A stretch of 64,000 nt of DNA, from the UHGV virus genome UHGV-1374526. One strand, 5' to 3'. This DNA is from a virus. Within the stretch, counting starts at the first letter, position 1; every line of letters begins with the position of its first letter. The notes under the pieces are model-generated. The model was not told the DNA's origin, made no database searches, and saw only the letters and a list, made by a program, of their open reading frames with translations. Below are positions 5,006 to 48,747 of this stretch, in pieces. Position numbers and translations under genes: made by a program.

Positions 5006-5016
5006 ACATCTTGACA

Positions 5017-5044: not shown

Positions 5045-5114
5045 AGAGAAGTTACCGAGGGTAGTTCACTCACCAAAGAAGCCCTCAACCCAAAACCAAG
5101 AATAAACGAATACT

Positions 5115-5882: not shown

Positions 5883-5952
5883 CCCCCTCCCGGCCCTGAC
5901 GGGTTTATCCCGTAGCACCGCATTGCGGGTAAAAAAGGGGCACGTTCTATTC

Positions 5953-5989
5953 GGCCATCATAGTACGCTATGGTGGCCGTCTTATTTTT
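5953..5989 (+). terminator. intrinsic terminator
   Basis: Hairpin ggccatcatag / ctatggtggcc followed by cttattttt. Confidence 0.6.
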
Positions 5990-5993
5990 GTGC

Positions 5994-6022
5994 TTGACCT
6001 TCTGGACTTTGTGGGATATATT
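5994..6022 (+). promoter_or_regulatory. sigma70-like promoter with -10 placed 5 nt before the ATG (leaderless)
   Basis: TTGACC 5994-5999, 17-nt spacer, TATATT 6017-6022, ATG 6028. Confidence 0.55.
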
Positions 6023-6027
6023 CTCCT

Positions 6028-6543
6028 ATGCAACTAGTAGGAGTTGACCCCGGAACCCACGGAGCCCTTGTACTCGCGGACACCCGGAGCAAGAAAATCT
6101 GGATAAAGCACATGCCAGAAGACGAAAGGGAACTGGAAATCATATTGAACAAACTGCCACGTAGCCGTCATCGTATCATGTACATTGAGAAGATGAGCTA
6201 TGCCATGAGCGGAGGCGGCAAGGTGTCCAATCCGAGAAGTAGTGGCGTATTGGGAGAGGCAACCGGGAAGGTCCTCGGTTACGCCGCGGCGGCGGGGTAC
6301 ACCGTCACAAAGGTTTCCCCAATCGTATGGATGCGGGCTATGGGCGCGTATGATACGGGCCTGACTGCCCGGGACCGCACGAAGTGGAAGAACAACCTGA
6401 AACGCATCGCGATGGAGAACTTCCCCGGCGCGAAGGTGACATTGCAGAACGCGGACGCTCTTCTCATTCTATTGTACGCGTACCGGGAACTGAACGACGA
6501 CCACACACTGACCCTCGACAACTGGGATATAGAAAGAATCTGA
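6028..6543 (+). CDS. RuvC-like Holliday junction resolvase
   Basis: N-terminal MQLVGVDPGTHGALVLAD fits the RuvC/YqgF first catalytic Asp motif. About 170 aa, in a replication/recombination context. Confidence 0.65.
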   Translation: MQLVGVDPGTHGALVLADTRSKKIWIKHMPEDERELEIILNKLPRSRHRIMYIEKMSYAMSGGGKVSNPRSSGVLGEATGKVLGYAAAAGYTVTKVSPIVWMRAMGAYDTGLTARDRTKWKNNLKRIAMENFPGAKVTLQNADALLILLYAYRELNDDHTLTLDNWDIERI

Positions 6544-6544
6544 A

Positions 6545-8383
6545 ATGGCACGACACTTTACCCGCTACGGACGACAATGGGAGTACGGAGTATCAGAGCT
6601 TGACATCGAACTCTGGTGCTTCAAATACGCATGGCCCGAAGAGAAGGGAGGGCTGGGCAGGTATGGACACGCTAAGAACGCCATCAATCTCCTGTGGAAT
6701 TACAAGGGCAGTCCTACTCCCATTATCTGGACGCCGTGGATTGAACGGATGATTGAAACCGCGTGCAAATATGATGTGGTCATCATGGGTGGAGGCTCGT
6801 CCTCTGGGAAGTCATTATCTATGGCTATCATGGCGACGCTCTTCTATCTGGCCGACCCCGTCGATACCCTTTGCCTAGTCACATCGACTACTATTGAAGG
6901 TGCGAAGAAACGTATCTTCAAGGATATTAAACGGTTGTGGCGCAAGGAATTTCCGGGCAAGCTCGTTGATGGCAAGGGACAGATTAAAGGCGTGAACGAG
7001 GACGGAGATATTGACGATTCCCGCGGCATCTCCATTATCCCCTGCGCGAACGTCGGCGACCCCAGTAGCCGATTTATCGGTATTAAGGCAAAGAACATGC
7101 ACGTCTTTTACGACGAGCTTTCCGAATTGCCGATTGAACTCGTCGAGGTGTGGCGTACCAACCTCATCACCAACAGAGCGGACACGCCTCCTACCCTGAT
7201 GGCCGCCTCTAACCCCAAGAGCCGCACCGATGCCTTTGGTGTTATGGCTATGCCCAAGGATGGGTGGAACAGCGTTGACATCTTTGAGGAATACGAGTGG
7301 GAGACCAAGGACGGGATTTACATCCGCTTCGACAACACCCAGAACCCCCGCATCAAATATGGCCGCGAGGATTGGAGCTTCTACACCCCGTTGGACATCG
7401 TTCAGCAAACGATTGAACAATATGGGGAGAATAGTCCGTTCGTGATGCGGTTCCACCGGGCAACCTTTTCAGACGATACGGAAGAAGGTTCACTAATGTC
7501 GGAGGCTGAAATTTACGGCAGTGGCGCGGATGCCATGCCCGTCTGGGGAGACGGCGAGTTGATTACCATCGCAGGATTGGACCCTGCCTACACCAACGGC
7601 GGGGACCAGTCATGTTTGAAGCTCGCCAAAGTCGGACGAACGGTTGAAGGGCTTTGGGCGTGCGCGGTGTTCCGTACCTATTTGTTGAAGTCTACGTCCG
7701 ACAAGGAACGGATGAAGCAAAGGAACTTCGACATCGCCCAGCAAGTTGGAGAGATTCTCCGGGCCAACGGGGTTGAAAGTAAGTACCTTGCCGTAGACGT
7801 AACCGGAGGTACTGGTTTCATCGACATCCTCGCCCAGCATGTCGGCACGGACTTCCAGACGGTCAGCTTCGCGGGTATGGCGAGCAAAGTGCCCATTGGC
7901 CTGTTGCAGAATCAGGAGGCATGCCAGCAATATAGCAACAAGGTCTCCGAGCTTTGGGGATGTATGAAACTGGCAATCAATGCTCGCCAACTTTATGGCC
8001 TCGACCCGACAACTATCGTCGAGCTTAAATCCCGGCTCTACACCATGAACGGAACCCGAATTGCCGTGGAACCCAAGGCGGCCATGAAGAAACGGATTCA
8101 TAAATCCCCGGACAACGCGGACGCACTAGCACTTCTCGTCCACGTGTGCCGGGGAATCATGGGACCGGAGTTCGGTAAGATTAGGCTTGACATTCAGAAC
8201 CATAAGGTGGTAGAACATCAAGAGGTAATCAAATATCGCGAAGACGGAACCGCATATATTGAAGCCGCAGACATTGGCAGGTATCTCGGAGGCTTCGTCG
8301 GAGGCAATGCCCCCGCTCCCGCTCCTGCCCGCGACACCTTTGCCTCCGACGTAACCGCCGCAATGAACATGCTATGGACCTAA
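6545..8383 (+). CDS. terminase large subunit
   Basis: 612 aa. Walker-A-like GGGSSSGKS. Size and position immediately upstream of the head genes. Start coupled to the RuvC stop (TGAaATG). Confidence 0.7.
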   Translation: MARHFTRYGRQWEYGVSELDIELWCFKYAWPEEKGGLGRYGHAKNAINLLWNYKGSPTPIIWTPWIERMIETACKYDVVIMGGGSSSGKSLSMAIMATLFYLADPVDTLCLVTSTTIEGAKKRIFKDIKRLWRKEFPGKLVDGKGQIKGVNEDGDIDDSRGISIIPCANVGDPSSRFIGIKAKNMHVFYDELSELPIELVEVWRTNLITNRADTPPTLMAASNPKSRTDAFGVMAMPKDGWNSVDIFEEYEWETKDGIYIRFDNTQNPRIKYGREDWSFYTPLDIVQQTIEQYGENSPFVMRFHRATFSDDTEEGSLMSEAEIYGSGADAMPVWGDGELITIAGLDPAYTNGGDQSCLKLAKVGRTVEGLWACAVFRTYLLKSTSDKERMKQRNFDIAQQVGEILRANGVESKYLAVDVTGGTGFIDILAQHVGTDFQTVSFAGMASKVPIGLLQNQEACQQYSNKVSELWGCMKLAINARQLYGLDPTTIVELKSRLYTMNGTRIAVEPKAAMKKRIHKSPDNADALALLVHVCRGIMGPEFGKIRLDIQNHKVVEHQEVIKYREDGTAYIEAADIGRYLGGFVGGNAPAPAPARDTFASDVTAAMNMLWT

Positions 8384-15024: not shown

Positions 15025-15236
15025 TAAATAATCCTTGACATACTGGTAATTTTATGACAAGAATGGGGCATCAAATGCGGTGTCCCATTCTTGCTTTCCC
15101 GCGAGCAAACCAAAACAAACCTTTATGCAGGTGTGAAAATTCTTGGTCCTGACCCTGCCATGACCGCGTAAGACCCCAAAACAAAATCTTCCAAAGAGAA
15201 CTAGGCGTTGCAAATTAAACCAAATTTAATTTACAA

Positions 15237-17850: not shown

Positions 17851-17900
17851 GGGGCTGAACTCATGAGCTAAACTTCTATGGGTTCAGCCCCAAATTTTTA
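17851..17900 (+). terminator. intrinsic terminator
   Basis: Stem ggggctgaac / gttcagcccc followed by aaattttta. Confidence 0.5.
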
Positions 17901-20502: not shown

Positions 20503-20536
20503 CCCCGGAGGCTAACCCCCTCCGGGGATTTTTATT
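20503..20536 (+). terminator. intrinsic terminator
   Basis: Stem ccccggagg / cctccgggg followed by atttttatt. Confidence 0.65.
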
Positions 20537-20581
20537 AAAATAATTTCTTGACAAATAATAAAATTATTATATGGTGGTGGC

Positions 20582-24225: not shown

Positions 24226-24698
24226 AGAAGAACAGTAGAGGACTAATCGTCCATCCCGGATTGAAACATTCACGGAGGCCACGGCATAGTACTCCCCCGG
24301 TAAAGAACGTGCCACGGGGCTACATTGCCACTGGGGAGATTGCCGATAAAATCGGGAGAAGCTCCGTATGGGTAATTCACGCCCTGAACCGATTGAAGGT
24401 CAAACACGTTCGTTGTGGGCATACCATGTACTGGGAAGGGGAAGGAGCCAATGAATATATTCAGATGCAGGTCAAAGGTCTATATGACAGCATCCCGGAA
24501 GGGTACGTTGATGTAGCTACCGCATTGGAATCTACGGGCTTGAAGTCTCCGGCGTATCTGACCACCCTATTCAAGCGGGGCAAAGTTCAACGTGTACGGT
24601 ATCGTGATGATAGCGACCCTCGCGGTCGTAGGACACGGTTTGCGTATAATTTGCTTGACCTCCTTTCTCATTTGGGTTTAGATAGCTCTGACGTATGA
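24222..24698 (+). CDS. HTH DNA-binding protein (AlpA/Xis-like, tentative)
   Basis: Segment YIATGEIADKIGRSSVWVIHALNRLKVKHVRCGHTMYW resembles excisionase/AlpA-type HTH. Confidence 0.35.
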   Translation: MKKNSRGLIVHPGLKHSRRPRHSTPPVKNVPRGYIATGEIADKIGRSSVWVIHALNRLKVKHVRCGHTMYWEGEGANEYIQMQVKGLYDSIPEGYVDVATALESTGLKSPAYLTTLFKRGKVQRVRYRDDSDPRGRRTRFAYNLLDLLSHLGLDSSDV

Positions 24699-25048
24699 GA
24701 ACGACCTACTCTACAACCAGAACCATACAGAAGGGCCAGAGCAATCAGCGAGCCTTGCTCGGTCTCCTTCTGAATATTGACCTCCTTGACTTCTCCCTCA
24801 CCGTTGATAACATACGTGTCCTTCTGTACATGCACGCCAATGGATTTGAGAGTGAGCATAGTAACCCGGAAATTAGCAGGGGTACTCGCATCCAGATATC
24901 ATCTCTCTACTATGTCCTGCGCAAGCTGGAAGAAAAAGGGTATATTGAATACGAGGGAGTGAGGGGGTCGAGGAAACAAACTAAAAGTAAACTAACTCCG
25001 AAAGGTATCACTTTCTGTCGTGACATCTTCCGGCCACAAACAATCTAA
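24695..25048 (+). CDS. winged-helix transcriptional regulator (PadR/MarR-like)
   Basis: LYYVLRKLEEKGYIEYEGVRGSRKQTKSKLTPKGITF is a classic wHTH recognition helix plus wing. Confidence 0.5.
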   Translation: MRTTYSTTRTIQKGQSNQRALLGLLLNIDLLDFSLTVDNIRVLLYMHANGFESEHSNPEISRGTRIQISSLYYVLRKLEEKGYIEYEGVRGSRKQTKSKLTPKGITFCRDIFRPQTI

Positions 25049-25492: not shown

Positions 25493-26524
25493 ATGGCAGA
25501 AGAGTATCAAGAGATTCCACAAGCTCCTGACCTCTTTAATCATCCCGTACCCTCGGTTCCCGTGGGTACGGAGATGTTTAATGAGGCCCCGCCATTTGAT
25601 TCAATGCCGGACCCGATTGCCCCTGTCTATGGGGATAGTGATGTAGGGACGTTCCATACCCCGGTATATAATGATGACCCCCTCATGCGCAACCGGGAAG
25701 AGAGCATGTTCGCCATTGTGTATGACCCAAAGGATTCCGGGACTAACGCAAAGGTCATGTACACCTGCGGTGTTGTCATTGATGATAATGAGGTGCATGA
25801 AATTGGAGGTGCGCCGGGGACGTTGAAGGCAGTGGATAGTGGAGAGAAAGCACCATTAGATGATGACATCGTCTGGTATGTCAATGTTAAATCCGACCGC
25901 AAGTCCTCCACCGTGTCTAGTAAGAAAGACACCAGCGCGGACTTCTCCGTCCCCATTGCGAGGACGAGCAAGGGCAGGAACGGATATATCCAGCAACTTC
26001 ACCGTGGTGCTATCTTCATTGGAGGCGGCGGTGGTGGCGGCAAGTTCCCATACAAGGTCACGACGACTAAGGAGCAGGACGCAAACAAGAACTGGCATAC
26101 CTACGCAGTTATCGAGCCGGGCGGTTTCCGTGATACCGAACGGAAGAAGGTGGAGATTGACGGGTTCAAAGACGGGGCGGCTAAGAAGGAAATCGTAACC
26201 GACGGTGAACTTCCCGTACTCCTTGAATGGGAATACACTTGGCCCGCCAATACCGTGACGAACGCCAAGCTGGTTGTTGATGATAAGCCGTGGGATGGTA
26301 AGGAGGTAATCACTCCGATTGAGAGTGCCGAGGGAACGGGTAAGAGCAAATGCGCGATTGCCATCCTGACGGTAACGCGAAACCCGCAGGACAATAGTCT
26401 TGACGCAACCGTGAAATCCCAGCTGGTCAATACTGGACTGGCCGCCGTCTGGTACAGCGGATATGTTGATGGCGTTAGCGGACGTGTTGGGCAATATGCA
26501 GAAGTAAGTACCGTAGCACCATGA
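25493..26524 (+). CDS. hypothetical protein (possible virion/tail component)
   Basis: 343 aa with poly-Gly IFIGGGGGGGKFPYK. Confidence 0.4.
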   Translation: MAEEYQEIPQAPDLFNHPVPSVPVGTEMFNEAPPFDSMPDPIAPVYGDSDVGTFHTPVYNDDPLMRNREESMFAIVYDPKDSGTNAKVMYTCGVVIDDNEVHEIGGAPGTLKAVDSGEKAPLDDDIVWYVNVKSDRKSSTVSSKKDTSADFSVPIARTSKGRNGYIQQLHRGAIFIGGGGGGGKFPYKVTTTKEQDANKNWHTYAVIEPGGFRDTERKKVEIDGFKDGAAKKEIVTDGELPVLLEWEYTWPANTVTNAKLVVDDKPWDGKEVITPIESAEGTGKSKCAIAILTVTRNPQDNSLDATVKSQLVNTGLAAVWYSGYVDGVSGRVGQYAEVSTVAP

Positions 26525-27333
26525 AGTCTCACCTCTTACTCCCCACGAACTCGTCGAAGGATATTTCGGTTTTAATGAGGAAGAATAATCCTGACTACAC
26601 TGAACAATATAAAAGTAGTTTGTGGTATGGAACCCAAGGACCCACGGTTTCCGGGCTTCCTGTACCTCTAGGTCGAGCCGTAGCTATTTCACCAAACGCA
26701 ACGCATAAACCGGGGATTAAGTGCAAGAACCTTGTGGACGCGTGGAAAGTCTTCAACACATTGAAAGGATTTAATTCCATCGCGCTTCCGGCGAAGTTGC
26801 CTAGTCAGAATGGCATTCCCGGAGGCGTCGATGCTCGTACTCAATTTCGAGTATACGAGCCAGCACTTTGGTTCGCATGGCAGGGAGTGCCGGAAGGAAC
26901 TGAAATTACTCCACATGAAGTCACATTGCAGGAAGCCCGCGATTGGCCCTACTATGACGACGGCTGGCTATACCAAAACAGTACATACGGACCACATTAT
27001 GGAAGCGGATTTATGGATAATATGTGGTACATTGAATCAGAAAGTGGAGCAGTTTATCTGGATGTAAGTATCGATTTAAGCTTCAAGTATGAGAGAAAAA
27101 CATCCTCTGGTGTATGGCAGACCTTTTCGATACTTGCCTATGTAGGCTACCCCATTAAATATTGGGCGAATGGGAATAAGGCTTCCATGCGAACAGTCAC
27201 ATGGAGCACCACGATAGGTGGAGTAGAAGTTGACTGCCTTGGAAGTTATTACTGTTGGACCCCCTACGTTGCCGCTCCCGAAATCTCCCAAATGAATCAA
27301 TGGTTTAAGGGATTACAGTTCACGACACTTTGA
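26521..27333 (+). CDS. hypothetical protein (possible virion/tail component)
   Basis: 270 aa, W/Y-rich. ATGA overlap with the upstream gene. Confidence 0.4.
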   Translation: MKSHLLLPTNSSKDISVLMRKNNPDYTEQYKSSLWYGTQGPTVSGLPVPLGRAVAISPNATHKPGIKCKNLVDAWKVFNTLKGFNSIALPAKLPSQNGIPGGVDARTQFRVYEPALWFAWQGVPEGTEITPHEVTLQEARDWPYYDDGWLYQNSTYGPHYGSGFMDNMWYIESESGAVYLDVSIDLSFKYERKTSSGVWQTFSILAYVGYPIKYWANGNKASMRTVTWSTTIGGVEVDCLGSYYCWTPYVAAPEISQMNQWFKGLQFTTL

Positions 27334-27385
27334 TATAGCAGTACAACTGGCTTATCGATTTCGTACATCGAAATGTCAGGACGTT

Positions 27386-27488
27386 AAACTCCCACGGAAC
27401 CCACGGAACCCACGGCCAAATGGTCACAATGGGTTCCGTGGGTTCCTTCGTTGTGTCATACCCACTAGCGTGTGCGGTTGTGTCATAC
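27386..27488. repeat. non-coding iteron/inverted-repeat locus A (CCCACGGAA direct repeats + GGGTTCCGTGGGTTCC partner + TGTGTCATAC x2)
   Basis: cccacggaa x2.5 at 27391-27415. Inverted copy at 27431-27446. ttgtgtcatac at 27451 and 27478. Confidence 0.6.
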
Positions 27489-27502
27489 CAATTAAAAATT
27501 TC

Positions 27503-27530
27503 TTGACCAGAATCTTCTTCTGTGTATGAT
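27503..27530 (+). promoter_or_regulatory. sigma70-like promoter (TTGACC-16-TATGAT), leaderless arrangement
   Basis: -10 ends 7 nt before the ATG at 27538. Confidence 0.5.
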
Positions 27531-27537
27531 GGCGGGC

Positions 27538-28203
27538 ATGGACAACAACATCCATTACATCATTAGCGCGTATAACCCCTCCCTTCATTGGCCGGAGAGG
27601 GAATCGAACCTAATCCATTACACGGTCAATTATCTTAAATCCCTGCACATCCCCGGCGAGCACATTACTGTCATGTCCGAGGACCTTGGCGTTCTTTCAT
27701 GGGCCAAAGCGGAGGGGCTGAACGTTGCCCGCGTCCCTGATGCACCCGATGAAGCCATCCTCTCCATCGCCGCAGAGCATGCGGGAATGGACATCATGGT
27801 GCTCGATACTCAATGCCCGGTGCGCGAAGCGGACCTTCTCGACGTTATGGCTAGCCAGATAGCTACCGAGAAGGATGTCATCTTCATCTCCGCATACATG
27901 GGAATGAAGCGGACGAACATCGAAGACTACCCCGCATGGACCAGCATAGTTGATGGTAGTGTGTGGGGGTTCCGGCACGATAGCGACCTGAAAGCCATTA
28001 AGAAAATGAGAAGTATCTATTATGTCTATCATGACGCGTTCGCCGGACACTTCGGAGTGAGCCTCGACTACCAATACGACAAGGAGGTTCTCGACATCGC
28101 CGTGAAACGCGGCTGGGAAAAGAGCGCAAGCACCGCTCCCTGCTCTGCGGATTATCCGCGCCGCGTGCAGATTATAGTTGACAAACCCAAACAGAATATC
28201 TAA
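27538..28203 (+). CDS. cytidylyltransferase-like nucleotidyltransferase (KdsB/NeuA/MobA fold, tentative)
   Basis: N-terminus IHYIISAYNPS matches VVIIPARYAST of CMP-KDO synthetases. Central block ILSIAAEHAGMDIMVLDTQCPVREADLLDVMASQIA matches the ...VIVNVQGDEPMI...IRQVA region. Start moved to the ATG after the -10; the ORF-track 27526 ATG lies inside TATGAT. Confidence 0.45.
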   Translation: MDNNIHYIISAYNPSLHWPERESNLIHYTVNYLKSLHIPGEHITVMSEDLGVLSWAKAEGLNVARVPDAPDEAILSIAAEHAGMDIMVLDTQCPVREADLLDVMASQIATEKDVIFISAYMGMKRTNIEDYPAWTSIVDGSVWGFRHDSDLKAIKKMRSIYYVYHDAFAGHFGVSLDYQYDKEVLDIAVKRGWEKSASTAPCSADYPRRVQIIVDKPKQNI

Positions 28204-29563: not shown

Positions 29564-29818
29564 ATGAAGAAGACCAACGATATTAGTATTGTAGATAATA
29601 AGAGAGTAGGAATCCTCAAGGTGAAATATGATGGAGATACCTTTGCCATCTTTAACTATTGTCGGGAGGGAGACGAGAAGGAACAGTGTTATCCCACGCG
29701 CGAAAGGGCTATAGAAATGGCGAAGATGGTTGCTCGCCATCTCATCCACGCGAATCCCGTTATGACAGAAAGGGGCATTGACCTTTACCCGACAGACTGT
29801 ACAATCCAAGACGAATAA
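29564..29818 (+). CDS. tandem-array paralog 1 (~80-aa family)
   Basis: Shares the FxV...A.FNYC...G....T...A...A.K.AR core with the next five genes. Confidence 0.5.
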   Translation: MKKTNDISIVDNKRVGILKVKYDGDTFAIFNYCREGDEKEQCYPTRERAIEMAKMVARHLIHANPVMTERGIDLYPTDCTIQDE

Positions 29819-29821
29819 ACC

Positions 29822-30061
29822 ATGAACGACAAAGTAGCTATTTTAGAAGACAAAGGATTTGGATTCTTCCGAGTAACTCACTGTGGAAGTGTCATTGCAG
29901 ATTTTCTTTACTGCACAGGCTCTGGTGAACAAGGATATATGACACGAGATTCCGCAAAGAAACTGGCAACGAAGATTGCCCGCTACGTAGTTAGCAGAGG
30001 GACAGTTTGTACCATCGAGGGAGTATCACTTAACCAAATCATTTTCAACATCGATGACTGA
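29822..30061 (+). CDS. tandem-array paralog 2
   Basis: GFFRVTHCGSVIADFLYCTG...TRDSAKKLATKIARYV. 8-nt ATGACTGA overlap with paralog 3. Confidence 0.55.
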   Translation: MNDKVAILEDKGFGFFRVTHCGSVIADFLYCTGSGEQGYMTRDSAKKLATKIARYVVSRGTVCTIEGVSLNQIIFNIDD

Positions 30062-30290
30062 CACTCTAAATATTACCACCATAGATGACCCCGATATCGG
30101 GTTTTTCTGGGTCCTGCTTGAAAACTGTTGCGTTGCCACCTTTTACTATTGCGTGAAAGATGATAGTGGCTTCTTCACCAAGGAGCAAGCTAAGAAACTA
30201 GCCAACAAGCTCGCCCGCAAAATTGAGAAGAGCATGATTATCGAAACCGAAAAGGGAATCAAATTGGAAAGGAACAACATCAATGAATAA
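30054..30290 (+). CDS. tandem-array paralog 3
   Basis: MTDTLNITTIDDP...FFTKEQAKKLANKLARKIEKS. N-terminus near-identical to paralog 5. Confidence 0.55.
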   Translation: MTDTLNITTIDDPDIGFFWVLLENCCVATFYYCVKDDSGFFTKEQAKKLANKLARKIEKSMIIETEKGIKLERNNINE

Positions 30291-30519
30291 CGATTCAGAT
30301 ACCCGTGTTTATGACATCCCTACTAGCGGAATGTTCCGCGTCAGGCACAGAGGAAGTTGCGTCGCCGTTTTCAACTATTGCGTGGCAGATGAAAGCGGCT
30401 TCTTCACCAAGAAGCAAGCTAAGAAACTAGCCATCAAGTTCGCCCGCAAAATTGAGAAGAGCACGGTCATAGAAACAAAGATGGGAATCAAACTTAAAAG
30501 GAACAATACTAATGACTGA
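30283..30519 (+). CDS. tandem-array paralog 4
   Basis: FFTKKQAKKLAIKFARKIEKSTVIETKMGIKLKRNN, nearly identical to the paralog 3 C-terminus. Confidence 0.55.
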   Translation: MNNDSDTRVYDIPTSGMFRVRHRGSCVAVFNYCVADESGFFTKKQAKKLAIKFARKIEKSTVIETKMGIKLKRNNTND

Positions 30520-30760
30520 CACTCTAAATATTACCACCGTAGATGACCCCATTGCCGGATTTTTCCGGGTCATGCTTGAAAACTGTTGCGTTGCCGCCTT
30601 TTACTATTGCACGGAAGGCGAGGAAGGACATTTCACCAAGAAGCAAGCCAAGAAGCTGACCGAGAAGCTAGTCCGCAAAATTGAAAATAGTACGACCATC
30701 AAAACCAAAAAAGGATTCAAACTACTTAAACCGAAAGGGAACGACAATGACCAACGATAA
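30512..30760 (+). CDS. tandem-array paralog 5
   Basis: MTDTLNITTVDDP...HFTKKQAKKLTEKLVRKIENS. Confidence 0.55.
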   Translation: MTDTLNITTVDDPIAGFFRVMLENCCVAAFYYCTEGEEGHFTKKQAKKLTEKLVRKIENSTTIKTKKGFKLLKPKGNDNDQR

Positions 30761-32627: not shown

Positions 32628-32656
32628 TTGACCCATTAAATCCCAAATGCTAACAT
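32628..32656 (+). promoter_or_regulatory. sigma70-like promoter (TTGACC-17-TAACAT) overlapping a CATGGCGG...CCGCCATG palindrome
   Basis: The palindrome spans 32654-32684 and its 3' arm contains the ATG at 32682. Confidence 0.4.
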
Positions 32657-32681
32657 GGCGGTGAGGTAATTCCTTGCCGCC

Positions 32682-33035
32682 ATGTTTAATTTCATCGCAC
32701 AGCTTAATGCTACTGACGGCAACGTGTGGGCATTGTTTCTCACTCGTATCGTCGATGAAATGTCCCCCGCGTATCTCGTATTCGTGGGGGTTATTTACGT
32801 GGCAGTAAAGCTGGCATATAAGTACCTCTCAAAAAAGATAGAGTTTAGTCTTGATAAGGAGAAGTCATTTCTCATACTATTGCAAGAAGCTCTAAGAGTT
32901 ATATCCGAGTTGGATGATTCTCTAGACCAACTACATGGAAAAATAGACAATCTACGAAGCGACCATGAAGAGATAATCGACCGCGCCTTCTGCGCTATCT
33001 CGCAACAAGATACACACCCCCTCCGACAGAAATGA
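32682..33035 (+). CDS. small TM protein, holin candidate
   Basis: TM AYLVFVGVIYVAVKLAY. Position next to the endolysin-like gene. Confidence 0.35.
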   Translation: MFNFIAQLNATDGNVWALFLTRIVDEMSPAYLVFVGVIYVAVKLAYKYLSKKIEFSLDKEKSFLILLQEALRVISELDDSLDQLHGKIDNLRSDHEEIIDRAFCAISQQDTHPLRQK

Positions 33036-33544
33036 AACTATTCAATCTGTTCCGAAAAAGCCACGAGCAGGAACAACTCGAAAACGAGTTGACCCAGAAT
33101 CTTAATCAATTACAGGAAAGCATCCGTGCGTGTACTGAAAAACTCCGCTCAAGGAATCGGTTCTATGCCTCCCTTCCTATTGGTCGCGAGGGTGAGCTGA
33201 AACTGCCCAGAAACCAATGGGCCTATTTTTTACGGGGGAAAGTAGGAATTCGTTATGACGGAGAAACCCTTACCTCTTCGGTTACACAGGTTAAAACTCG
33301 TGAAGAAGTTCAACTGCCAAGAATTATTGACGCGGAGAGAAGTCATAAATTACTTGTCATACGAGGATATGTTATTGACAGGAGAACAAACCGCACCTAT
33401 TATCAGGGCGAGACAGTAAGTTTTCAGCGGGGAGAACCAATGCAATTAACGTTGAACGGGCATATTAGCATGATGTGGACACCCCCGCTTCCCGATGCAA
33501 TTATGCCGTTCTATCAAACCAATATACATGGCCTTGATTCCTAA
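33032..33544 (+). CDS. hypothetical protein
   Basis: 170 aa. ATGA overlap with the upstream gene. Confidence 0.4.
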   Translation: MKLFNLFRKSHEQEQLENELTQNLNQLQESIRACTEKLRSRNRFYASLPIGREGELKLPRNQWAYFLRGKVGIRYDGETLTSSVTQVKTREEVQLPRIIDAERSHKLLVIRGYVIDRRTNRTYYQGETVSFQRGEPMQLTLNGHISMMWTPPLPDAIMPFYQTNIHGLDS

Positions 33545-38291: not shown

Positions 38292-38394
38292 ATTTGACAT
38301 AATACATATTTCACTTGACCCTCGCCCCACTCATGATAGGATGTTGAAGACCCACATGAGTGGGGCAAACTTATTATACTAATACTCAACAAAC

Positions 38395-41300
38395 ATGGCT
38401 ATTGACTTTAGTACCGCCAATATGTCCGACTTCACTCCGAAGTCGGGAAGCAGTATTGCACGTGAACAGCGAGCCGCAGAAAGGCACGCCGCGTGGCAAG
38501 AGACGCAAGCGCAGAAACAGCAGGACCGAGAACAGAAAGCACTGGACCGCGAGCAAAGGTTAGCGGAAAAGAAACAGACCCGTGCCGAGAAGGGAGCGAC
38601 GGCGACCGCAGACTATGACACCTTCCTCTTTAAGTCTGTTGATGACTTTGCGGAGAAACAGAAAAAGGATGCGGAACACGCAAATAATGTAGAATGGCAA
38701 AATAAATCCCGCGCCCATACGGAACAAGAATGGAAAACCGCCGAGGAAAATAAAGCCCTCGACATCTTGAACAAAGGAAACCGTGGGTACAGCTTTGAGG
38801 GAATCGACTACATGAAAGACTATGTAGACCGCGGGGAAGATGCGCTGGTCGATTTGAAGGCCGCTTCCCGCGGTGATAGCGAGGCCATTAAGAAGCTTGC
38901 CAACAATACGGGACTTACCGTTGTGTCTTCTTCCGAGCTTACGCCTACGCACCCCACCTTCTTATCCCGCTCTGGCTTCGGAAGTGGAGAGGACGGGAAC
39001 CCCGTCGTAACGGAAAAGTTCCTCGCCATTGCCGCGGACAGAAACCGTAACGCAAAGGCGGTTGCCAAAGGCATTGCCAACACAATGGAAAAGGCCCGGA
39101 AGGATTACCTCAACTCGAATCTAGATGTTGGAACGGGTAAACCTACGGCGCAAGCCATCGAGACCGCACCTATTGCTTACACCGCAGAAGAAATAGAAAG
39201 CGTCATCAATACGATTAGGCGCGAAGACATTGGCAACTATCGTGCCGCTAAGGCTCTTTACGACAAACACCGCTCTTCTTCGACGGAAGGCGTGCAGAAG
39301 AAAACCCCCAGCCAAACGAGCGTGGGGGAGCTTGGCGTTGGCGAATTCTCTGATTCAGCACCTTCATTTACTGGGAATGTTTTTGCTGAACTCGCCAACC
39401 TTTCCAAGTCTCCCAGCAAAATGTTCCAGCTTGTCCGCGACTACGGGGATTACCTTTCCCGGAGTACGGAAGATATTGAATCCCCGGAATCTGCTACAGC
39501 GGATGCGAAACAACTCCATACAGACCAAGCAAAACTCATTTCAAAAAAAGAAAAACCTGTTGAGGATAGGATTCGTGAACAGATAGAAACAGCCGACAAA
39601 ATCGTAAGACGCCTCGAAGAGGACTACACTGGCCTTCCCTATCTCGAACTTCGCGACGCGCTTCTCAATCCAGAGGCCGCGGCCTCTGCCCTTCTGTCTT
39701 TAGTCCCCGGTGCTGACATGGACGCAATACGTGCACGGGCAAAGGTCATTACCGAGGAAGTTCGCCGCCAGAAGGACCGCCCTCTGACCGTCGAAAACCC
39801 CGAACAGATTGGCATGAGTGAGGCTATACTGGAAGCCGTGGCCACAAGGTTTCCGGGGGTTCCAAAATCTGCCCTGCGCCAAGCGGGAGTAACCAAACTG
39901 ATTCAGGACTATACCGCCAAAGCCACGCCGAAAGGCACTCTCATGGATGCAGTCAAAGGCGCACTGGCTAACTACCGAAGCACGGCGGGACAAATTGCGG
40001 ACGTACTTACCTTCCAACCGGATAATAGTGTGGGTAAGTACGCCGACCCAATGAGCTTGATGGAATGGAGGAAGGGAACGAGGCGTGGCTCATGGTGGTA
40101 TGGCATGCCGGGCGGCCCGTCCTTTGAAGTCGGACCGGAGAGGTTGAAGGAATACATGGCCCAGTACCATATTGAAAGTACTCGCGATGCCCTCAACTCC
40201 CTCTCCCATGCCGCACGTATGGGTGACTTGGGCGTTGGCCGTGGCAGTCTCTTTGCGTACAATCCGCACACCAAGGAAGTTGATACGAACGCCACGCTCG
40301 AACTGAATCCCAATGCTCTCTACAATGATAAGCTGATGGACCAGAGCATTGAGGCTCTCCGTGCTAGTGGCGCGGACGAGAAGCTTATCAATCGCACCAT
40401 TGAGAAGTTCCAGAACCTCCGCAAGAAATCCGCACAGGAACTTGTGAAGGACAACATGGCATTGGACGAGACGCTGGGGACGCTTCGCGATACGTGGCTT
40501 GGCTCCGGCTTGCAGTTCAACCCTGTCTTGACTGAATCCATGAAGCATCTGGACAAGTACCTTTCCTTCAAGAATTTCTACAACGAACAGAAGGAAGCGG
40601 GCAAGAGCGACGAGGACATCCTCTCCGCATGGCAGGAGAAAGGGCAAGCCACCTTCGATTCTGTTCTCCGTGGGTTACAGATAGGTACACACAAGGCAAT
40701 CGACCTTGGGACAAGTACCGCCTATGGTGCTCTTCTCTTTGCACAGAATGCAGTTGGCAGTCGTGCGGCGATGGAACATACCCGCACCCTCTGGGACCAG
40801 CTGAACAAAAAACAGGAAGCAGAAGCCGAGTTGGTTCGAGGCAATATCCTTGCGGACTATACTGCGGAAATCGCTAACCTCGGCTACCAAATGGTAGCAA
40901 CCGCGGGGGCTGGTAAAGTTGGTGGCCTCGCTGGCCGTGCACTGACACGTACCGCGCTCAATAAATTCATGAAGGCAACGGCTAACGTCGTAGCGAAGCG
41001 GGCCGAAGCTCTTGTCCCTGCCGCCCGTCCGGGATTGGCGGGACGTTTGAGTGGAACTATTCAGCGCAACCTCGACAACCTTGCGGCGTTGAACCTCGAA
41101 CGGGCAGGAGCCGGAGCCGGGGTAAATCTTAGCATCATCTCGCAGGTTGCACCGAATGCTTACTCCGACATCTTCTATACCATTTATGATAGGGAGATGG
41201 AAGGGAAGGAACCGACTGCCGAGAACACGAACAGGGCACAGAGCATTGCCAACATGCGTGCTCTCTTTGGTGCGGCTCTCGTATCTACTGGTAGTACTCT

Positions 41301-44300
41301 CATCAACAACCGCGCAGGTATGGATTCCTTCATGCGTAAGATTGTTGGGGCTAAAAACCTTCGCGGTCAATCTCCATTCCAAACTCTTGAACGGAAGATG
41401 GCCGGATGGAGAAGCAAGCCATTTAAGGAGATGAACACGAAGGAAAAGACGTTTGCCGTTGCTTCCTATCTGTACAGCCAGAGCAAGGCCGTAGTGGAAG
41501 GAGCCACCGAAGAACTGGCAGACGAATTCCAAGAGTGGGCGTTTACCGAACTGGTGAAGAACGGAGAAATCTCCGAATCCTCTATTGCCACTACTGACCA
41601 AGTGATTAGCACAGGCATGAAGATTGCTTTCCTCGGAGGTATCGGCGGCTACGTTGGTAGCCACTTAGCTGGTGAAGGGAACATACGTTTCCAAACCGAA
41701 GCCGCTCCCACTCTCGATGTAAAGGATGCTACTTCCATGCTACCGGATATTACGAAAGATGCGAGCAACATCATCGAGGAAACGGGCAAAGCCATTACCA
41801 AAAACAATGTGCCGGAAAGCTTGGTAGAAACCGGAAAGAAGGTTATCGAGATTGCCGGGGAGAAGGGAGATGCCGCGGAAGTTGCCCGCGAATGGGTGGA
41901 CAAATCCATTGCCCATGAAAGTCTGGCAGTCTCCGATGAAACCCGCAAGGCGTGGGTGGAAGGAGCAACCCGTATGGGCATCAGCAACTTCACCCAGTTC
42001 CGCAACCTAGTGGAACGGGCCTCCGAAATATATACCTATGAGGGCAGTGCCGCGGCAAGCTCATTCATGGCAGAAGCCATTAACGACCTGCCCAATACCC
42101 TGTCATTCCCAAATAAGGAAAACCTCGACACCATGCGCACCATGCTTTCGGAGGCCCTTGATGCTATGGGAGACCGGGTTCAGGTTATCGAAGTAGACGA
42201 CGACCTGTCCATCATTACTACAGGGGACGAGGACCTTGATGCCGCCATTAACGTTATTAACGGATTGACGGAAGCCGCGGCTACCACGGAACCCAAGGAA
42301 TCCCCGGCTACCGCGGAACCCACGGAATCCCCGGTAGCTATTGCCCGGAAGGAGAGGGACAATGCTATTGCCCCCATCACTGCTATGGTAGAGACGGGAG
42401 TAGTTACCCCAGAAGCTACCGCTTCCGTGGATAACATGGATGCGGCAATCACCTCGTTCGACCCCAACACCGGGGCATGGCTCTCATCCGGTTCACCTCT
42501 GGACCGCGGCGCGAAGCTCGTCTCCCTGAACGAGATGACCGGGATTAACGCCCCCATGATTACCAGCAACACGGGAGAAACCGTTGTCATCGCTCCGCAC
42601 GCAAGCATGTACAACACAGGTGAGGGAGGGACACCCAGCACCAAGTGGGGGGACAAGGTCTCCGCTCTCAATCTCCCGACGGATGGGACTGGCGCAAATG
42701 CCTACGGCACGCTTCGCGGCCTTCAAGTTAATGCCTCCCCCGCACAGGCCGCGGCCATTGATGGAGTGCTCCGCGCACTGCATGCCGCTGGTTTGGACGT
42801 CGCTATCCGTGCAACCAATGCCCCGGCGAACATCTCTTCCCCTGCCAGTATCACCTACATGAACGGCACGGACGGGAAGCTTGTCGGCGGTGTCATTGAC
42901 CTGTACGTGAACCGGGATAACCCGATTGAAAGCGTAACGGGAACGGTACTACACGAAGTCATCCACCTCATTGACCGTCATCTTCGTACCACCAACACGG
43001 ACTATTCCCAGCGGATGGATAGGATTAGAAGCGCGATTGCAGAGAACTACAACAACATTGTCGATAGTCTCTCCGCTATGTATGACGCTAGCGTGGACAT
43101 CAATGAGATGAACGCCATCGCCGCGCTCGCTTCCGACCTCAACTACGGTCTCCGCGGTGCGGACGAATTTGCCAGTGTCGCGTTCTCCAATCCTGTCATG
43201 AACTTCATGGTAGCGGAAGCTAGCGGAGACAATATCACCATCACGGATTTGGCTCGCTATGCCGAAGCGGCGGGAGGCCGGAAGCCCGTGCACGTGCGCC
43301 TCGTCGAATGGCTTAAAGATTTGATTAGGGACATCAAAGATACTGCGGACGATATGGACGGAACCACCGCCGCAGAACGCGTGGCTGAATGGGATTCCTA
43401 TGTGGCCCGCGTCGCGGACATGACCCCCGGCAAGTGGTTCGATATGCCTCGCACTCCGTCATGGAAAGTAGATGATACGGATTATACTATGGGCAACGGG
43501 GTAGATTATTTTAACCCGATGGCCTATGAGACCGACATGACCCGGAGATTGTCCTTCGGCCTTGGCGCAGAAATCATTGGCACGAAGGCCGGGAACTGGG
43601 TAACTAGTATTAAGAACGTATGGCAAGGCGTGTCTAAGGGCTTGGACAAAGCAGGCATCAATGTTAAGTCCGAGGAACAGAAGCTGGTTGTGCTGGAACA
43701 AATGGCCAATGTTAATGCGGCGTATGAACGCAGTATTAAACGCATTGACAAAATTGGTGATATGCTTCAACGCCGTGCGGATAATCTGGGCTGGGATGCC
43801 GCTACGCGAAAGAAATGGAGCAAGTCCATTCTTGACATGTCGGGGAATATGGACAACGATATTGACCCTGAAACTGTTGCACGCATTAACGCAGAGGCTC
43901 AAGCAGAAGTTCGTCAGCATGAACAGACCCGCGACTTCCGTATCGCGTTGGCTAAGAAGACTGTCACCGATGCCGTCAATAGGCACGCGGAAGCGGTGCG
44001 TCTGGCTAACTCCCTTGCGCTTAATAGTGAAGGGCGATTGGAAATCAACGACATGATGCGCCGGATTAAAGACATGAGCGGCAAGGGATATGGAGCCATG
44101 CTGGACAAGCAGGTAGCTCTCCCCATGCTCTCCCAGCAGATTCACAAATCTCTCTCCGACCTTGGCTCTCGTATCTCCGCGACGGGGGATGCCAATCTGG
44201 ATATCACCTACTTTGGCCTTGCCCGCGACACGCAAAACTATCTCGCGGATATGATTAACGAAGTGGATAGTCCCTTCTCTATGGATGAACTTCTGGACAG

Positions 44301-47300
44301 GTGGTCCAACCTTCGCAATGACTTCCTCTATGCGGAGAGTACAAACCATCCCGTCATCGCTCCTATGATTCAGGACATCGCTAAGGCACGGGCCGAAGCT
44401 AAACAAATCATCCGGGAAGCCAATGATGATTTCCACGCCGCAACAAAGAGGGCAGGTGTAACTCGCGCTGGCGTAGCTACCCCTGCTGGTTCCGTGTGGC
44501 TGAAACGAGACAACGCTATCCTCAATGCTCGCCGTCAAAAACAAGCGGAGTATATGGCTAAGCGGGATGCCGCTGAACAGTGGCTTCTGTCACAAGGAGT
44601 TGTAGGCCAACTGGTCCACAATGTCATCGCCGATTCCCGTAAAGAAATTGCCGCAACGCAAATCTCTATTGCCAAGCTCATTGGAGATAGCCGTATGGCT
44701 GACAACGCCGCGGAGATGAATTATCTTCATCGCACCTACATGGCCGTTGGACGCCATGCCGGAGACTTCACCCGGACGATGAAGGACATCATCGCAAACC
44801 CCAACGGAGAACTGGCGCAGAAATACGATGGTCTGACGAAACTGTTGCAGGAAGCCGCAATCTCTCATGCCGAAGCGCACCAGAGAGAACTATCCGAAAA
44901 CGTAAGCCAAGTGCTGGACAACATGCAGGCATTGGCCGCGCTCCACGACGAGTTGAAACTTCCGCTGGTGTCAGCTCCCACGGGAGCCTCTTCGAATTAT
45001 AAACTCCTGTTCGAAGGTGTAGCCAAGAACTACAGGACCAGAGAAATTCTTGACTTCATTCAGAACAACTTCGGTCAGGTTCAAATGCTTGCGGACTTGA
45101 GGGACGGCCACAACATCAGTGCCATATATAATAAGGCCATGAGCATGATAGCACAGGCAGACTATCGCACGAAGTCAAAGATGACAGAGAGGAAGGAAAC
45201 TCTGGACATGAATGCCAGAGATAGTTTCCTCGCTGATGTCTTCTCCAGCCTTCCGGGAAAAACGATTGCGGACAAAATCGGCAGTCTTCAATCCCCGGCA
45301 TCCGTGGCTTCCGAAGTGAACAAGGCCATCCCCACTATCCCGACTTCGGCCATTGACCAGATATGGAACACGCCTAATATGAATGCCGCAGAACGACTGG
45401 ACAAGACGCTCAATCTTCTTCGCGGTCAGGCTGGCGTTCTCATGAGGATGAACGGCATGGGCAACGTCATCTCCGCTACCGACTTGAAAGCGTTGCAATA
45501 TCCGGAACTCTCCCGTCTTGCGGTGAACGATGCCATGAAGGCCATTGACGAAGTACTGTCCAAGAAGAGGACGAATGAAGATGCGCTGGCCCAGCGGAAA
45601 CGCTTGCCCGAATGGCAGAGGAAAGCTATGTATGAACTTAGCGACCTCACCATTGGGGATGCCATTGGGACGTTACAGAATACCCTATCCATGCAGTCGA
45701 AGATTGCCGTGAACCAGTTGCTTGCTGACGAGTATACCTCCGTACTGAAAGCGCAGGGTGTGGTCGTACCCCCGAATTCCACGAACCGTACTTCGGACAT
45801 GGTGGAAATCTCCTTGAAGAATACGAAGAATGCGTTGAACGGAATGTACGCCGACAAGGATGTAGCCGATGCCATCTACCGCATCTACAGGCCGAGCGAC
45901 GACATCCTGAATAGCAGGACGGACGACTATAAGGAGGTCCGCGAGTACTGGCAGAAGTCCGGCAAGGGGCAAGGATGGTGGAGTAAGGCGGGTGGCTTGG
46001 CTAACCTTTCTGTCTTAATAGCGAGTCCTAATTCCACGTTACGTAACTTATATGGTACAGTAGCTCAAATGACCCATGCGGGTGCACTTCCATTCACGGG
46101 GAGTAAAGAAATCGCAAAGCTTATCGGAGATTGGAGCCAGATGTATAAACTGCGGAAGTTGTCCCGCGGTAAAGACCTTGCTTCACAGGCTTCCGCGGAT
46201 AGACTGCTGGCCGCGGAAGACAGGTACAACGAGAAGATTCGCTACTGGCAAGAGCTTGGTCTGCTGGACGCAGGTCAAGGGGAGTTCCTGCGCAACGTCT
46301 GGAAGTCTGACGAGTTCAGTAAGATGGCAGGAGAATTTGAAGAAGTGAATGAGGATTCCTTCTTCAAACTGGCCGAAGCTCTGAACGAGAAACAGGAACG
46401 GACGAAGGGCGAGGTGGCTAAGGATGTCGCCAAGACGGCGGGCAAAGTCGTAGCATGGCCCATCAAAACGATGTCCTTCGCCTATGGCTTGCCGGACGCG
46501 GCGGCCAAGATTGCTCTCTTCACTAACCAGAGAGCGATTGCCGATACCCAATTAAAGGTACAACTGGCACGGGCGAAAGGCAAGGCCAACCCCAATGCAC
46601 GGGACCAGATACTCCTTGACGCGAGCCAGACTACCCAGAGTTGGGATGCTTATGTGGACAGGTATACTGCCAACATGGTGAAGAGCTTGCTCCCCACGGG
46701 TTCGCGTACTCCTTCGTGGGTGAAAACCCTGAATATAGTTGCGGCTCCGTTCTTCATGTTCCAGTACCATACCTTCCAGTCTGTAGCCTACAACCTTGGC
46801 CACGCCATAGGTGAAGGGGTAGACGGTGTGTGGGCTATCAATAACGGCATGAAGAAGGAGGGGGCTTACCTCTTGGGACGCGCTATCCTTCGCATCGCTG
46901 GTTCCGCAGTAACTATTGGTGCAACCTCTGCGGTCTCTTCCTGGGTTGCCCGACAGATTATCGCCAGTGTCTTGGGAGATGACGATGACCATAAAATCAT
47001 TGACGACGCGGAAGTCATGAGGAAGCTGGCAGATAGTGGGCTAATTCCTGACTATGATAAGTTCGGGGACTTGATTGGCATCATAGATATGAAGCGACAT
47101 GAGTTCGAGTATTTGACCCTTGAATACATGAACCCGTTCAAGACCATCAGGGTGTTAGCCAAACCCCTGCCCAGCCTCTTCATGGATATGGATGTGGACA
47201 AGTGGGGGATGAACAAGGTTGCCGAACTGAAAAACCTGCTGGAAAATACGGTGCTTGAAGAATCCCTCCTTCTGAACACAGCTACTGAATTGTTTAATGA

Positions 47301-48106: not shown

Positions 48107-48135
48107 TTGACCTTCGGGGGCATGGGAGATATAAT
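48107..48135 (+). promoter_or_regulatory. sigma70-like promoter TTGACC-17-TATAAT inside perfect palindrome; leaderless
   Basis: Palindrome CATGGGAGA-TATAAT-TCTCCCATG spans 48121-48144. ATG at 48142. Confidence 0.55.
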
Positions 48136-48141
48136 TCTCCC

Positions 48142-48747
48142 ATGCCCTCTTTTCGTATAGTACCCAATCATATCATGGCCACCCCTCCGGGAGGCTGGAA
48201 GTTTATTGTCCCTGAATCCATGAGTGTCAGGCTCAAGGGAACCAAGGTTTCCGCGGGTTCACTGGAACAACTCCGCAAGGCGGTCGCCCGTCTCTTCATG
48301 AATAACGGAGAACCCTTTCAGGTTGCGCTCTTTGAATCAGAGCTTTGCGCTTCTCTCCCTCCCCAGTACTGCACCACCTGCGGTGATAAGGGAATTGAAT
48401 GGAAGGAGTATGAACCCATGAGTGCCAAGAAGATATTGGCCTTCTTCGGTACTATGGTTCTCTGGTATCGACGGGGACACAGGTTTGTAGACGAGGCAGA
48501 AGCTCGCCGCCGCTATGCTATCTGCGCCTCCTGTCCGTATGCTACCTCTACGCCTCCCCCGGATTTAGAGAAGCAAGGGTGCGCCACATGTGGAGCCGAA
48601 GGAGCTGGCCGCAAATTCCTCAAGGAAAAAATCTCCGGGCTTGCGGACCTGACCAACGGGAAGGCCCCTCTCTATTGTACCTTATGTGGTTGCGACCTAT
48701 CAGTAAAGGCTCACTTCGATATTGAATCTGACTGCTGGCTAAAATAG
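48142..48747 (+). CDS. Cys-rich (zinc-binding) protein
   Basis: CTTCGD, CASCPY, CATCGAEG and CTLCGC clusters. Confidence 0.5.
   Translation: MPSFRIVPNHIMATPPGGWKFIVPESMSVRLKGTKVSAGSLEQLRKAVARLFMNNGEPFQVALFESELCASLPPQYCTTCGDKGIEWKEYEPMSAKKILAFFGTMVLWYRRGHRFVDEAEARRRYAICASCPYATSTPPPDLEKQGCATCGAEGAGRKFLKEKISGLADLTNGKAPLYCTLCGCDLSVKAHFDIESDCWLK

Follow-up and report, generated by a model that had tools for sequence, protein, structure and literature searches.

Locus A (27386-27488) of the uncultured virus genome UHGV-1374526, analyzed here in a window of 64,000 nucleotides (nt), is best read, with a probability of about 0.6, as a composite boundary between two transcription units of the + strand, in which a terminator-like hairpin would be followed by a sigma-70-type promoter bearing a GTCATAC box. 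By its layout, the locus looks like an ordinary gene-boundary control region rather than a replication origin or a packaging site. Comparison with 36 related loci (the close clade comprising 29 distinct versions) distinguishes three separable parts, namely the promoter with its leaderless start, the hairpin, and the GTCATAC box.

In the arrangement proposed for these parts, a stable hairpin made of GGAACCCAC 9-mers would most likely act in RNA as a terminator or as a 3'-end protection for the upstream unit, and its weak U-tract suggests that such a terminator would be leaky. One obligatory GTCATAC box, with its center near -52 to -56 and an A-tract after it, would be bound by a putative transcription factor, either from the phage or from the host, modulating RNA polymerase both here and at minus-strand promoters in which the box has the same offset. 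Additional 27-bp units found next to it may represent tandem expansions adding boxes, shared with the 63.6-kb region probably by recombination. Finally, the sigma-70-type promoter would start a leaderless mRNA at, or immediately beside, the ATG of position 27538, opening an operon that would reach about 33 kb. Termination by the hairpin, binding of a protein to the box, and the direction of any regulation are inferred from the features described below.

The gap and its probable leaderless promoter

The gap between the + strand genes 26521-27333 and 27538-28203 covers 27334-27537, i.e., 204 bp when counted to the true start at 27538 and not 192 bp as in an earlier, sequence-only reading of this DNA, and the flanking genes, described there as convergent, are both on the + strand and co-directional. 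The repeats, the inverted repeat, and the promoter were otherwise all located correctly by that reading. In + strand order, CCCACGGAA is present 2.5 times (27391-27399, 27400-27408, and an incomplete copy, CCCACGG, at 27409-27415), the arms of a perfect 17-nt inverted repeat occupy 27396-27412 and 27430-27446 (17 nt between them, 100% complementary), and GTTGTGTCATACC is present twice, starting at 27450 and 27477 with a spacing of 27 bp. They are followed by TTGACC (27503-27508), a 16-nt spacer, TATGAT (27525-27530), and the ATG at 27538. The inverted repeat (27396-27446) is the longest perfect short-range one within the 64-kb window. The repeats are also in statistical excess over the window: with at most one mismatch, TTGTGTCATAC is observed 10 times vs. 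0.74 expected (none of 100 shuffles reaching 10) and CCCACGGAA 40 times vs. 18, while GTCATAC is found 17 times for 5.8 expected and GGAACC/GGTTCC 73 times for 41.

Since the repeat periods of 9 and 27 are multiples of three, a coding origin was considered and rejected. All + strand frames carry stops across the gap, no frame on either strand is open across it, and a minus-strand open reading frame (ORF) of 54 aa (27424-27588) is not retained in L067, a relative with 78% protein identity. The spill-over of a codon motif, which the sequence-only reading had named as a possible explanation of the repeats, can thus be ruled out, and the gap 27334-27537 is, as judged from its reading frames, non-coding. 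Neither Rfam, at gathering thresholds, nor tRNA scans of the window returned a match.

The promoter TTGACC-16-TATGAT (27503-27530, +) matches the sigma-70 consensus at 10 of 12 positions, and the whole segment GTCATACCAATTAAAAATTTC-TTGACC-16-TATGAT-GGCGGGC-ATG is essentially invariant across the 29 close-clade versions. More distant relatives, found via the downstream protein, display TTGACC-16-CATAAT-7-ATG in L067 and L071 (76-78% protein identity), TTGACA-16-TATGAT-7-ATG in L077 (45%), TTGACA-16-TACAGT-6-ATG in L078 (38%), and TTGATA-17-ATAATA-5-ATG in L079 (46%). In these five relatives the hexamers, their spacing of 16-17 nt, and the ATG are kept, the spacer sequence being unrelated. Three ATG codons follow the -35 at locus A (27526, 27529, and 27538). 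The last one lies 7 nt past the -10, the intervening GGCGGGC leaving no room for a leader, and the corresponding distance is 5-7 nt in the five relatives. The four codons before this Met are variable (MMAG, MMTG, MIAG, MMAC, MCIMAG) and the protein is conserved from that Met on, the first invariant residue being M1 of MDNN; the N-termini of L077 and L079, MSEPLPNHEFDDF and MSETQPNHEFDDF, respectively, start at the equivalent ATG. Because hexamers, spacing, and ATG are kept while the spacer drifts, and because the protein is conserved from the ATG, it is very probable that this is a genuine promoter giving a leaderless message at 27538. The proposal of a leaderless promoter next to the repeats has thus held up well, its layout being kept in relatives down to 38-46% identity.

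Four further promoters of the window (5994, 9036, 20548, and 48107) exhibit the same -10-to-ATG layout, and together with the one at 27503 they can be described as TTGAC(C/A)-16/17-TAnnnT with an ATG 5-7 nt later. Since five window promoters have their ATG at this distance from the -10, leaderless starts appear to be common in this phage and may hint at its host. The + strand genes that look highly expressed have A-rich leaders without a Shine-Dalgarno sequence.

The hairpin and the GTCATAC box

The hairpin (27391-27446, +) has CCCACGGAA x2.5 as its left arm and GGGTTCCGTGGGTTCC as its right arm, followed by TTCGTTGTGT. Its 17-nt loop contains a mini-stem of 4 bp, which brings the helix to about 21 bp, and its predicted RNA fold has an energy of -39.7 kcal/mol (z = -6.2), or -53 kcal/mol in a 137-nt context. 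Relative to the upstream stop at 27333, the array begins 58 nt and the stem 63 nt after. The hairpin is kept in all 29 close-clade versions covering the region, including those where the upstream gene is swapped, with 2.5 left repeats or, in five versions, 1.5, and every variant folds at -32 to -40 kcal/mol. Substitutions among close relatives concentrate in the loop and in the junction that follows the stem, with four and five variants, respectively, and the changes found in the arms are a terminal C to T, giving G-U in RNA, in eight versions and a single A-C mismatch in L068. The only divergent homologous hairpin is that of L067, where a GGAAT left arm stands opposite GGGTTCC with G-U pairs; register-shifted in the alignment, its stem is displaced one repeat rightward and measures 18 bp.

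In the syntenic L077 (45% identity), an unrelated perfect 17-bp hairpin, ATTGCGAGAATATAC-GGAAAAT-GTATATTCTCGCAAT, is followed by a U-tract (CAUUUUAU, CATTTTAT) and, as judged from this arrangement, is a textbook intrinsic terminator. It sits 3' of a shared non-coding block, GATTTCGTACATYGAAATGTCAG. At locus A, this block (27357-27379, +) reads GATTTCGTACATCGAAATGTCAG and holds the inverted repeat ATTTCG-5-CGAAAT; it is retained as GATTTCGTACATTGAAATGTCAG in L077 (about 5880-5902), where the remaining gap has diverged, and is swapped for a different block in type-2 relatives, a subset of the close ones. Because L077 holds an unrelated hairpin and U-tract at the same place, the conserved feature is, by this comparison, a structure in terminator position and not the GGAACC sequence as such. 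Other + strand gaps of the window (5883, 20443, and 48091) likewise have a hairpin with a T-tract and then a promoter. Altogether, the balance tips slightly in favor of the hairpin being a terminator or an RNA 3'-end structure.

Regarding the GTCATAC box, the promoter-proximal copy GTTGTGTCATAC (27477-27488, +; core 27482-27488) lies 14 nt upstream of the -35. The A/T-rich spacer CAATTAAAAATTTC between them (27489-27502, +) presumably occupies the position of the UP-element proximal subsite, and similar A-tracts (AACTCAAAAAACTAT and the like) are found at minus-strand box promoters too. On the minus strand, boxes at 58508-58514, 62301-62307, and 62806-62812 stand 15 nt upstream of TTGACA-17-TAAACT of gene 57642-58391, TTGACA-17-TAAATT of gene 61638-62189, and again TTGACA-17-TAAATT of gene 62324-62692, respectively. 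With the + strand promoter at 27503, four intergenic promoters of the window thus have the box 14-15 nt upstream of their -35. When relatives are added to the window, 16 distinct minus-strand promoter contexts carry it 13-16 nt upstream of TTGACA, in most cases with an A-tract after it. In an unbiased count of 7-mers located 11-17 nt upstream of TTGAC, GTCATAC and TGTCATA come out on top, with 5 of their 17-18 occurrences. One of these five pairs was discounted: the candidate fifth box promoter at 33356/33375 (GTCATAC-12-TTGACA-17-TATTAT, 33356-33403) falls within the coding sequence of a real gene (33032-33544), where the motif encodes V-I-R / I-D-R, and is probably due to chance. The sequence between box and core differs between the + and the minus-strand classes and, as the locus A promoter belongs to a different core class (TTGACC, another spacer, leaderless), duplication of a cassette does not by itself account for the sharing of the box. 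The box is lacking at several further strong promoters of the window.

The proximal box is invariant in all close relatives with complete sequence there (L044 has an assembly gap of N at this site) as well as in L067 and L071. The number of boxes at locus A is one in 22 of the 29 versions, two in three (including the window), and at least three in four. The distal 27-bp unit GTTGTGTCATACCCACTAGCGTGTGCG (27450-27476, +; GTCATAC core 27455-27461) is accordingly variable in copy number, and a degenerate unit without the GTCATAC core persists in L053 and L068. Successive boxes, being spaced 27 bp apart, lie on different helix faces. The same unit type, GTTGCGTCATACTCGCTAGCGCGTGCG, is also repeated at 63642-63668, where relatives carry 0, 2, or 4 extra units, and the copy numbers at the two loci do not track one another. 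As judged from this pattern, the extra units are dispensable, copy-number-variable expansions. The expected conservation of the repeats in close relatives was thus confirmed, and the idea of an operator array, which is the closest of the three functions suggested by the sequence-only reading (origin, packaging site, or operator array), stands as far as the fixed position of the box upstream of several -35s is concerned, whereas an array is not required, a single box being the rule. The zone from -52 to -56 is used by class-I-type activators, by contacts of the C-terminal domain of the RNA polymerase alpha subunit, and by some repressors, and the element of the Ogr-dependent promoters of phage P2 is located near -55. 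The odds that the GTCATAC box is a putative transcription-factor site are evenly balanced.

Several points weigh against the composite boundary. The hairpin does not fit a strict definition of a terminator (loop of 3-8 nt, at least 5 U in 8 nt): its loop is 17 nt and its tail, TTCGTTGTGT, has 6 U in 10 and is not a clean U-tract. Because of this loop and poor tail, a consensus terminator scan that reported 20503-20527 missed it. The gap of L079 (46% identity) has no hairpin at all, and an RNA-structural role alone does not explain why the 9-mers recur at 63.7 kb, where they form a direct array, and at 59.1 kb, where they form inverted arms at long range. As for the box, its dyad symmetry is only partial (TGT-CAT-ACA, with T-rich and A-rich flanks), and its offset from the -35 can differ by 3 bp. 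The distant relatives L077, L078, and L079 lack the box altogether. On the minus strand of the window, the three promoters with a box are near-identical cassettes, so the recurrence of the box may partly reflect duplication and not independent selection. No DNA-binding protein can be assigned to it from Pfam/PHROG searches, which covered the genes on either side of the gap, 20 minus-strand genes, and the large ORFs, and returned as sole DNA-binding candidate the nearby 24695-25048 product, with a winged-helix signal that is weakly lambda-O-like / MarR-like. Among the three helix-turn-helix or winged-helix genes that the sequence-only reading had put forward, it is the only one with such a signal, the 24222 and 8374 products giving none.

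Other roles for the unit were considered and rejected. GTCATAC could have belonged to the start region of a separate upstream promoter, as TAYRAT precedes several copies, but no acceptable -35 is visible by eye and TAYRAT is absent at locus A. Likewise, the 27-bp unit contains no -35/-10 of its own, and no RNA polymerase was detected for which it could serve as a phage-type promoter. Likeness to the DnaA-box or integration host factor consensus, compared by eye only, is 5/9 or worse.

On the minus strand, near-identical cassettes of about 130 bp, at 58392-58530, 58960-59080, 60192-60315, 62190-62323, 62693-62833, and 63473-63560, precede the genes. They consist of TTGACAAGATAAGAAAATCTGMTAAAnT, a short G+C hairpin (e.g., GCGGGGGACAAACCCCGC) early in the 5' untranslated region, and CAATAGAAAGAA before the ATG, and they resemble mobile early-promoter cassettes.

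Alternative explanations and related systems

The alternative that survives best, while unlikely, is that only the promoter is functional. Arms and 27-bp units would then have arisen neutrally, by slippage and recombination at a module boundary, their sequences having been copied from the 59/63-kb regions and retained through gene conversion. Free copy numbers at both loci (1 to at least 4 units, 1.5 or 2.5 left 9-mers, 0-7 GGTTCC repeats) would fit such a history, as would the degenerate units of L053 and L068, the position of the locus next to a gene replaced at least twice, and the lack of these sequences in distant relatives. However, neutral repeats would hardly leave the proximal box unchanged across the close clade (L044 being gapped) and the 76-78% relatives when the adjoining junction exists in five variants, nor the stem intact while loop and tail change. 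The stem rebuilt in a new register in L067, the hairpin of unrelated sequence at the same place in L077, and the fixed offset of the box from the -35 at two unrelated promoter classes also speak against a neutral origin.

It is quite unlikely that phage replication or packaging proteins recognize the GGAACC arms and GTCATAC units as sites in the DNA, which would make locus A a secondary origin, a site of the pac/cos type, or a handcuffing/titration partner of the 63.6-kb region. The two repeat types are neighbors only twice, namely at locus A and at the head of a repeat field of about 1.9 kb, and at the latter the GGTTCC 9-mers form a direct array without an inverted partner, which suggests protein binding and not a hairpin. 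The weakly lambda-O-like / MarR-like winged-helix gene lies 2.4 kb upstream of locus A, and an A/T-rich stretch adjoins the 27-bp units. Iteron-type origins, such as lambda ori and plasmid iterons, have direct repeats next to an A/T-rich stretch, a likeness that locus A shares together with the nearby O-like gene. Unlike them, locus A usually has a single copy, a period of 27 bp, and a freely varying copy number that do not recall a phased iteron array; its repeats are lost in syntenic relatives, those at 45% identity or below keeping the promoter and, in L077, also a hairpin, but neither repeat sequence; and 1.5 left repeats suffice in five versions. Its A/T tract belongs to the promoter, being explained as the -40s region that recurs at minus-strand promoters. 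Cumulative GC skew has no inflection at 26-30 kb. An origin at locus A, as the sequence-only reading had contemplated, is therefore disfavored, the 63.5-kb field being the better place for one. A packaging site is not favored by the position either, the large terminase gene ending 19 kb upstream, and no end-of-contig pattern was found beyond one assembly break: of more than 35 contigs, only one begins or ends within the array, and a second carries N at this point, as a repeat shared by two loci would be expected to cause during assembly.

The same reading had assigned both repeat types to one phage DNA-binding protein, which is not supported, hairpin and box behaving independently: L077 has an unrelated hairpin with a U-tract and no box. 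A reduced form of this DNA-level idea stays alive because the 9-mers recur at 59.1 and 63.7 kb: GTCATAC units and GGAACC/GGTTCC 9-mers could be the recognition code of one or two phage proteins, at the 63.5-kb field and at locus A. It appears improbable. If true, it would link replication or genome-end functions with activation of the 27.5-33 kb operon, and the variable unit arrays would represent tunable titration or looping sites.

Very doubtful is the proposal that the hairpin is an RNA processing or stability element (an RNase III-type site or a block to 3' exonucleases) separating the fates of upstream and downstream messages in a read-through transcript, for which a helix of about 21 bp, long for a terminator, adequate for a nuclease specific for double-stranded RNA and presumably like RNase III substrates, the poor U-tract, and G-U-compatible changes (the terminal C to T in eight versions, the GGAAT arms of L067) could be cited, and against which speak the textbook terminator of L077 (17-bp stem, then CAUUUUAU) and the hairpins with T-tracts of neighboring gaps.

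Coming back to the composite boundary, the hairpin also coincides with a break in homology. The upstream gene (26521-27333, +, 270 aa) is hypervariable: tblastn against the relatives reveals three forms in otherwise >95% identical genomes, namely the window type (99%), an allele at 48-49% identity, and an unrelated replacement extending into the preceding 343-aa gene (25493-26524), whose C-terminal half is exchanged as well. Among relatives with the three types, homology restarts exactly at the first CCCACGG of the hairpin, which by this criterion marks the right-hand edge of a swapped gene module. Composite terminator/promoter cassettes called PeSLs (promoter-early stem-loops) border swapped genes in T4-type phages (PMC2839356, PMC4122927). 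Locus A is similarly a compact stem-loop plus promoter in a gap, beside a gene swapped among close relatives and with homology resuming there, and the minus-strand promoters of this phage are, as in PeSLs, near-identical repeated cassettes. From the mosaic pattern, recombination through the locus A cassette can be inferred. In contrast with PeSLs, the combination of hairpin and promoter at locus A is unique in the window, the recurring elements being limited to the box, the 27-bp unit, and a related arm sequence; the hairpin itself is not repeated at many boundaries (its one relative, at 59.1 kb, differs at 2/17 positions), the promoter falls outside the class formed by the repeated minus-strand cassettes, and the phage is unrelated to T4-like phages, the best PolA match being at 26.7%.

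The late promoters of phage P2 that depend on Ogr share an upstream TGT-N12-ACA element (PMC3931495). The GTCATAC box is, in the same way, a short conserved element upstream of the -35, common to several promoters and specific to a phage clade. Unlike the Ogr sites, the locus A box TGTCATAC shows a symmetry of TGT-N3-ACA at best; its promoters have good -35 hexamers, so that an activator need not be required; and it is found on 'early-like' minus-strand promoters as well as on + promoters, with no Ogr-like zinc-finger regulator identified. A further likeness is found within the same genome: like the terminator-promoter gaps at 20503-20575 and 5940-6020, locus A has, after a stop codon and on the coding strand, a G+C-rich stem with a promoter within 60 nt, although its 17-bp stem, 17-nt loop, and tail of 6 U in 10 differ from those of intrinsic terminators. 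Cassettes that join a terminator, a promoter, and regulatory boxes at mosaic boundaries are well known from phages, and current understanding is not challenged by this one.

Neighboring genes and the wider genome

With regards to the lineage, most genes of this uncultured phage are without family assignment, and a defined promoter architecture is thus a useful annotation. This architecture combines TTGAC(C/A)-16/17-TAnnnT with frequent starts of the leaderless type, with boundary modules made of a hairpin and a promoter, and, at some of the promoters, with an upstream GTCATAC box specific to the clade. It allows gene starts to be corrected and transcription units to be delimited, and it provides a motif with which to look for the regulator and, perhaps, the host.

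Most of the genome of an uncultured phage is contained in the window, related assemblies (from IMG/VR and other sources) measuring about 68-70 kb. Because the contigs of relatives begin at differing points, their assemblies are indicated to be circular. PolA, a helicase, an exonuclease, and the large terminase (6545-8383) are encoded at 0.4-8.4 kb, and the long block of + strand genes extends to 49 kb. It is followed by a minus-strand block (49.3-63.5 kb) of small genes together with ThyX and an NAD-dependent ligase. No match was found among GenBank phages by megablast of 26-29 kb or by tblastn of a 756-aa protein, the best match of PolA among deposited phages has 26.7% identity, and a scan of genome contigs with the downstream protein found no host or prophage match.

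The first gene of the downstream operon (27538-28203, +), with a predicted leaderless mRNA, encodes 221 aa. Its AlphaFold2 model has a pLDDT of 66, and Foldseek aligns it with cytidylyltransferases at TM scores of about 0.45-0.54. The modeled fold weakly resembles nucleotidyltransferase / GT-A enzymes; going by this model the product is not a DNA binder, and its structure gives no regulatory clue. The 270-aa product encoded upstream of the gap has no Pfam or PHROG match. The region 25493-27333 as a whole, with a kept N-terminus followed by a swapped C-terminus and next gene, displays a pattern typical of host-range or counter-defence modules.

The repeats of locus A recur, as had been noted beforehand, at 59.1 kb and at 63.6-63.7 kb, and also at the three minus-strand boxes described above, which had not been listed. 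At 59.1 kb, inverted 24-nt arms, AAACCCCGGAATCCCCGGAACCCG (59110-59133) and CGGGTTCCGGGGGTTCCGGGGTTT (59221-59244), are 87 nt apart, are conserved in L072, L074, and L075, and adjoin the palindrome TGTTCCACGTGGAACA (59248-59263). The GGAACC-type repeats of 59.1 kb and 63.7 kb both adjoin the palindrome TGTTCCAYRTGGAACA. Three GTCATAC units (63616-63679, +), of which the first copy, TTATAATTGTGTCATACAAC, is constant in relatives, form the head of the repeat-rich field. They are followed by a direct array of CCCGGTTCC x6 (63686-63741, +), which has its GGTTCC hexamer and its period of 9 bp in common with the arms at locus A; relatives have 0-7 copies of it, or GGTATCCATGATTCCCC x2 instead. The field itself (63473-64000, continuing in L059 at 4440-6340) is about 1.9 kb of non-coding sequence between the minus-strand block and the next + genes. 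It harbors arrays of GTCATAC units, GGTTCC 9-mers, (TA)n, AAATGTA and TTATGCA repeats, and the palindrome AATGTTCCAYRTGGAACATT, as well as 9-bp arrays of CAATCGGG and GGTTCAACG, CTAACTTATTAAGTCC repeats, a TATATATA tract and, in L059, three 57-bp repeats; array content and copy numbers vary between close relatives. If the phage has an origin or a genome-end region, this field from 63.5 kb on is the best candidate for it.

Some further features of the + strand block can be mentioned. Within the operon of the locus A promoter, five tandem paralogous genes of 78-84 aa (29564-30760) have a mutual identity of 27-64%. The 170-aa ORF 33032-33544 is a real gene (58% identity to its L077 homologue) and overlaps the annotated start (33495) of a 971-aa ORF, whose true start is probably further downstream. 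The largest ORF, of 3231 aa (38395-48090), has no Pfam or PHROG match and, in a podovirus-sized genome of about 70 kb, recalls giant injected proteins, e.g., virion RNA polymerases. Several + promoters lie within unique inverted repeats (48107-48153, 17851-17891, 38324-38366, 32652-32686, and 15058-15093). In the inverted-repeat promoter GGGCATGGGAGA-TATAAT-TCTCCCATGCCC, after which TCTTTT comes, the loop contains the -10 and the right arm the leaderless ATG. Such promoters look like overlapping terminator/promoter modules, in which a hairpin formed on read-through would bury the start codon.

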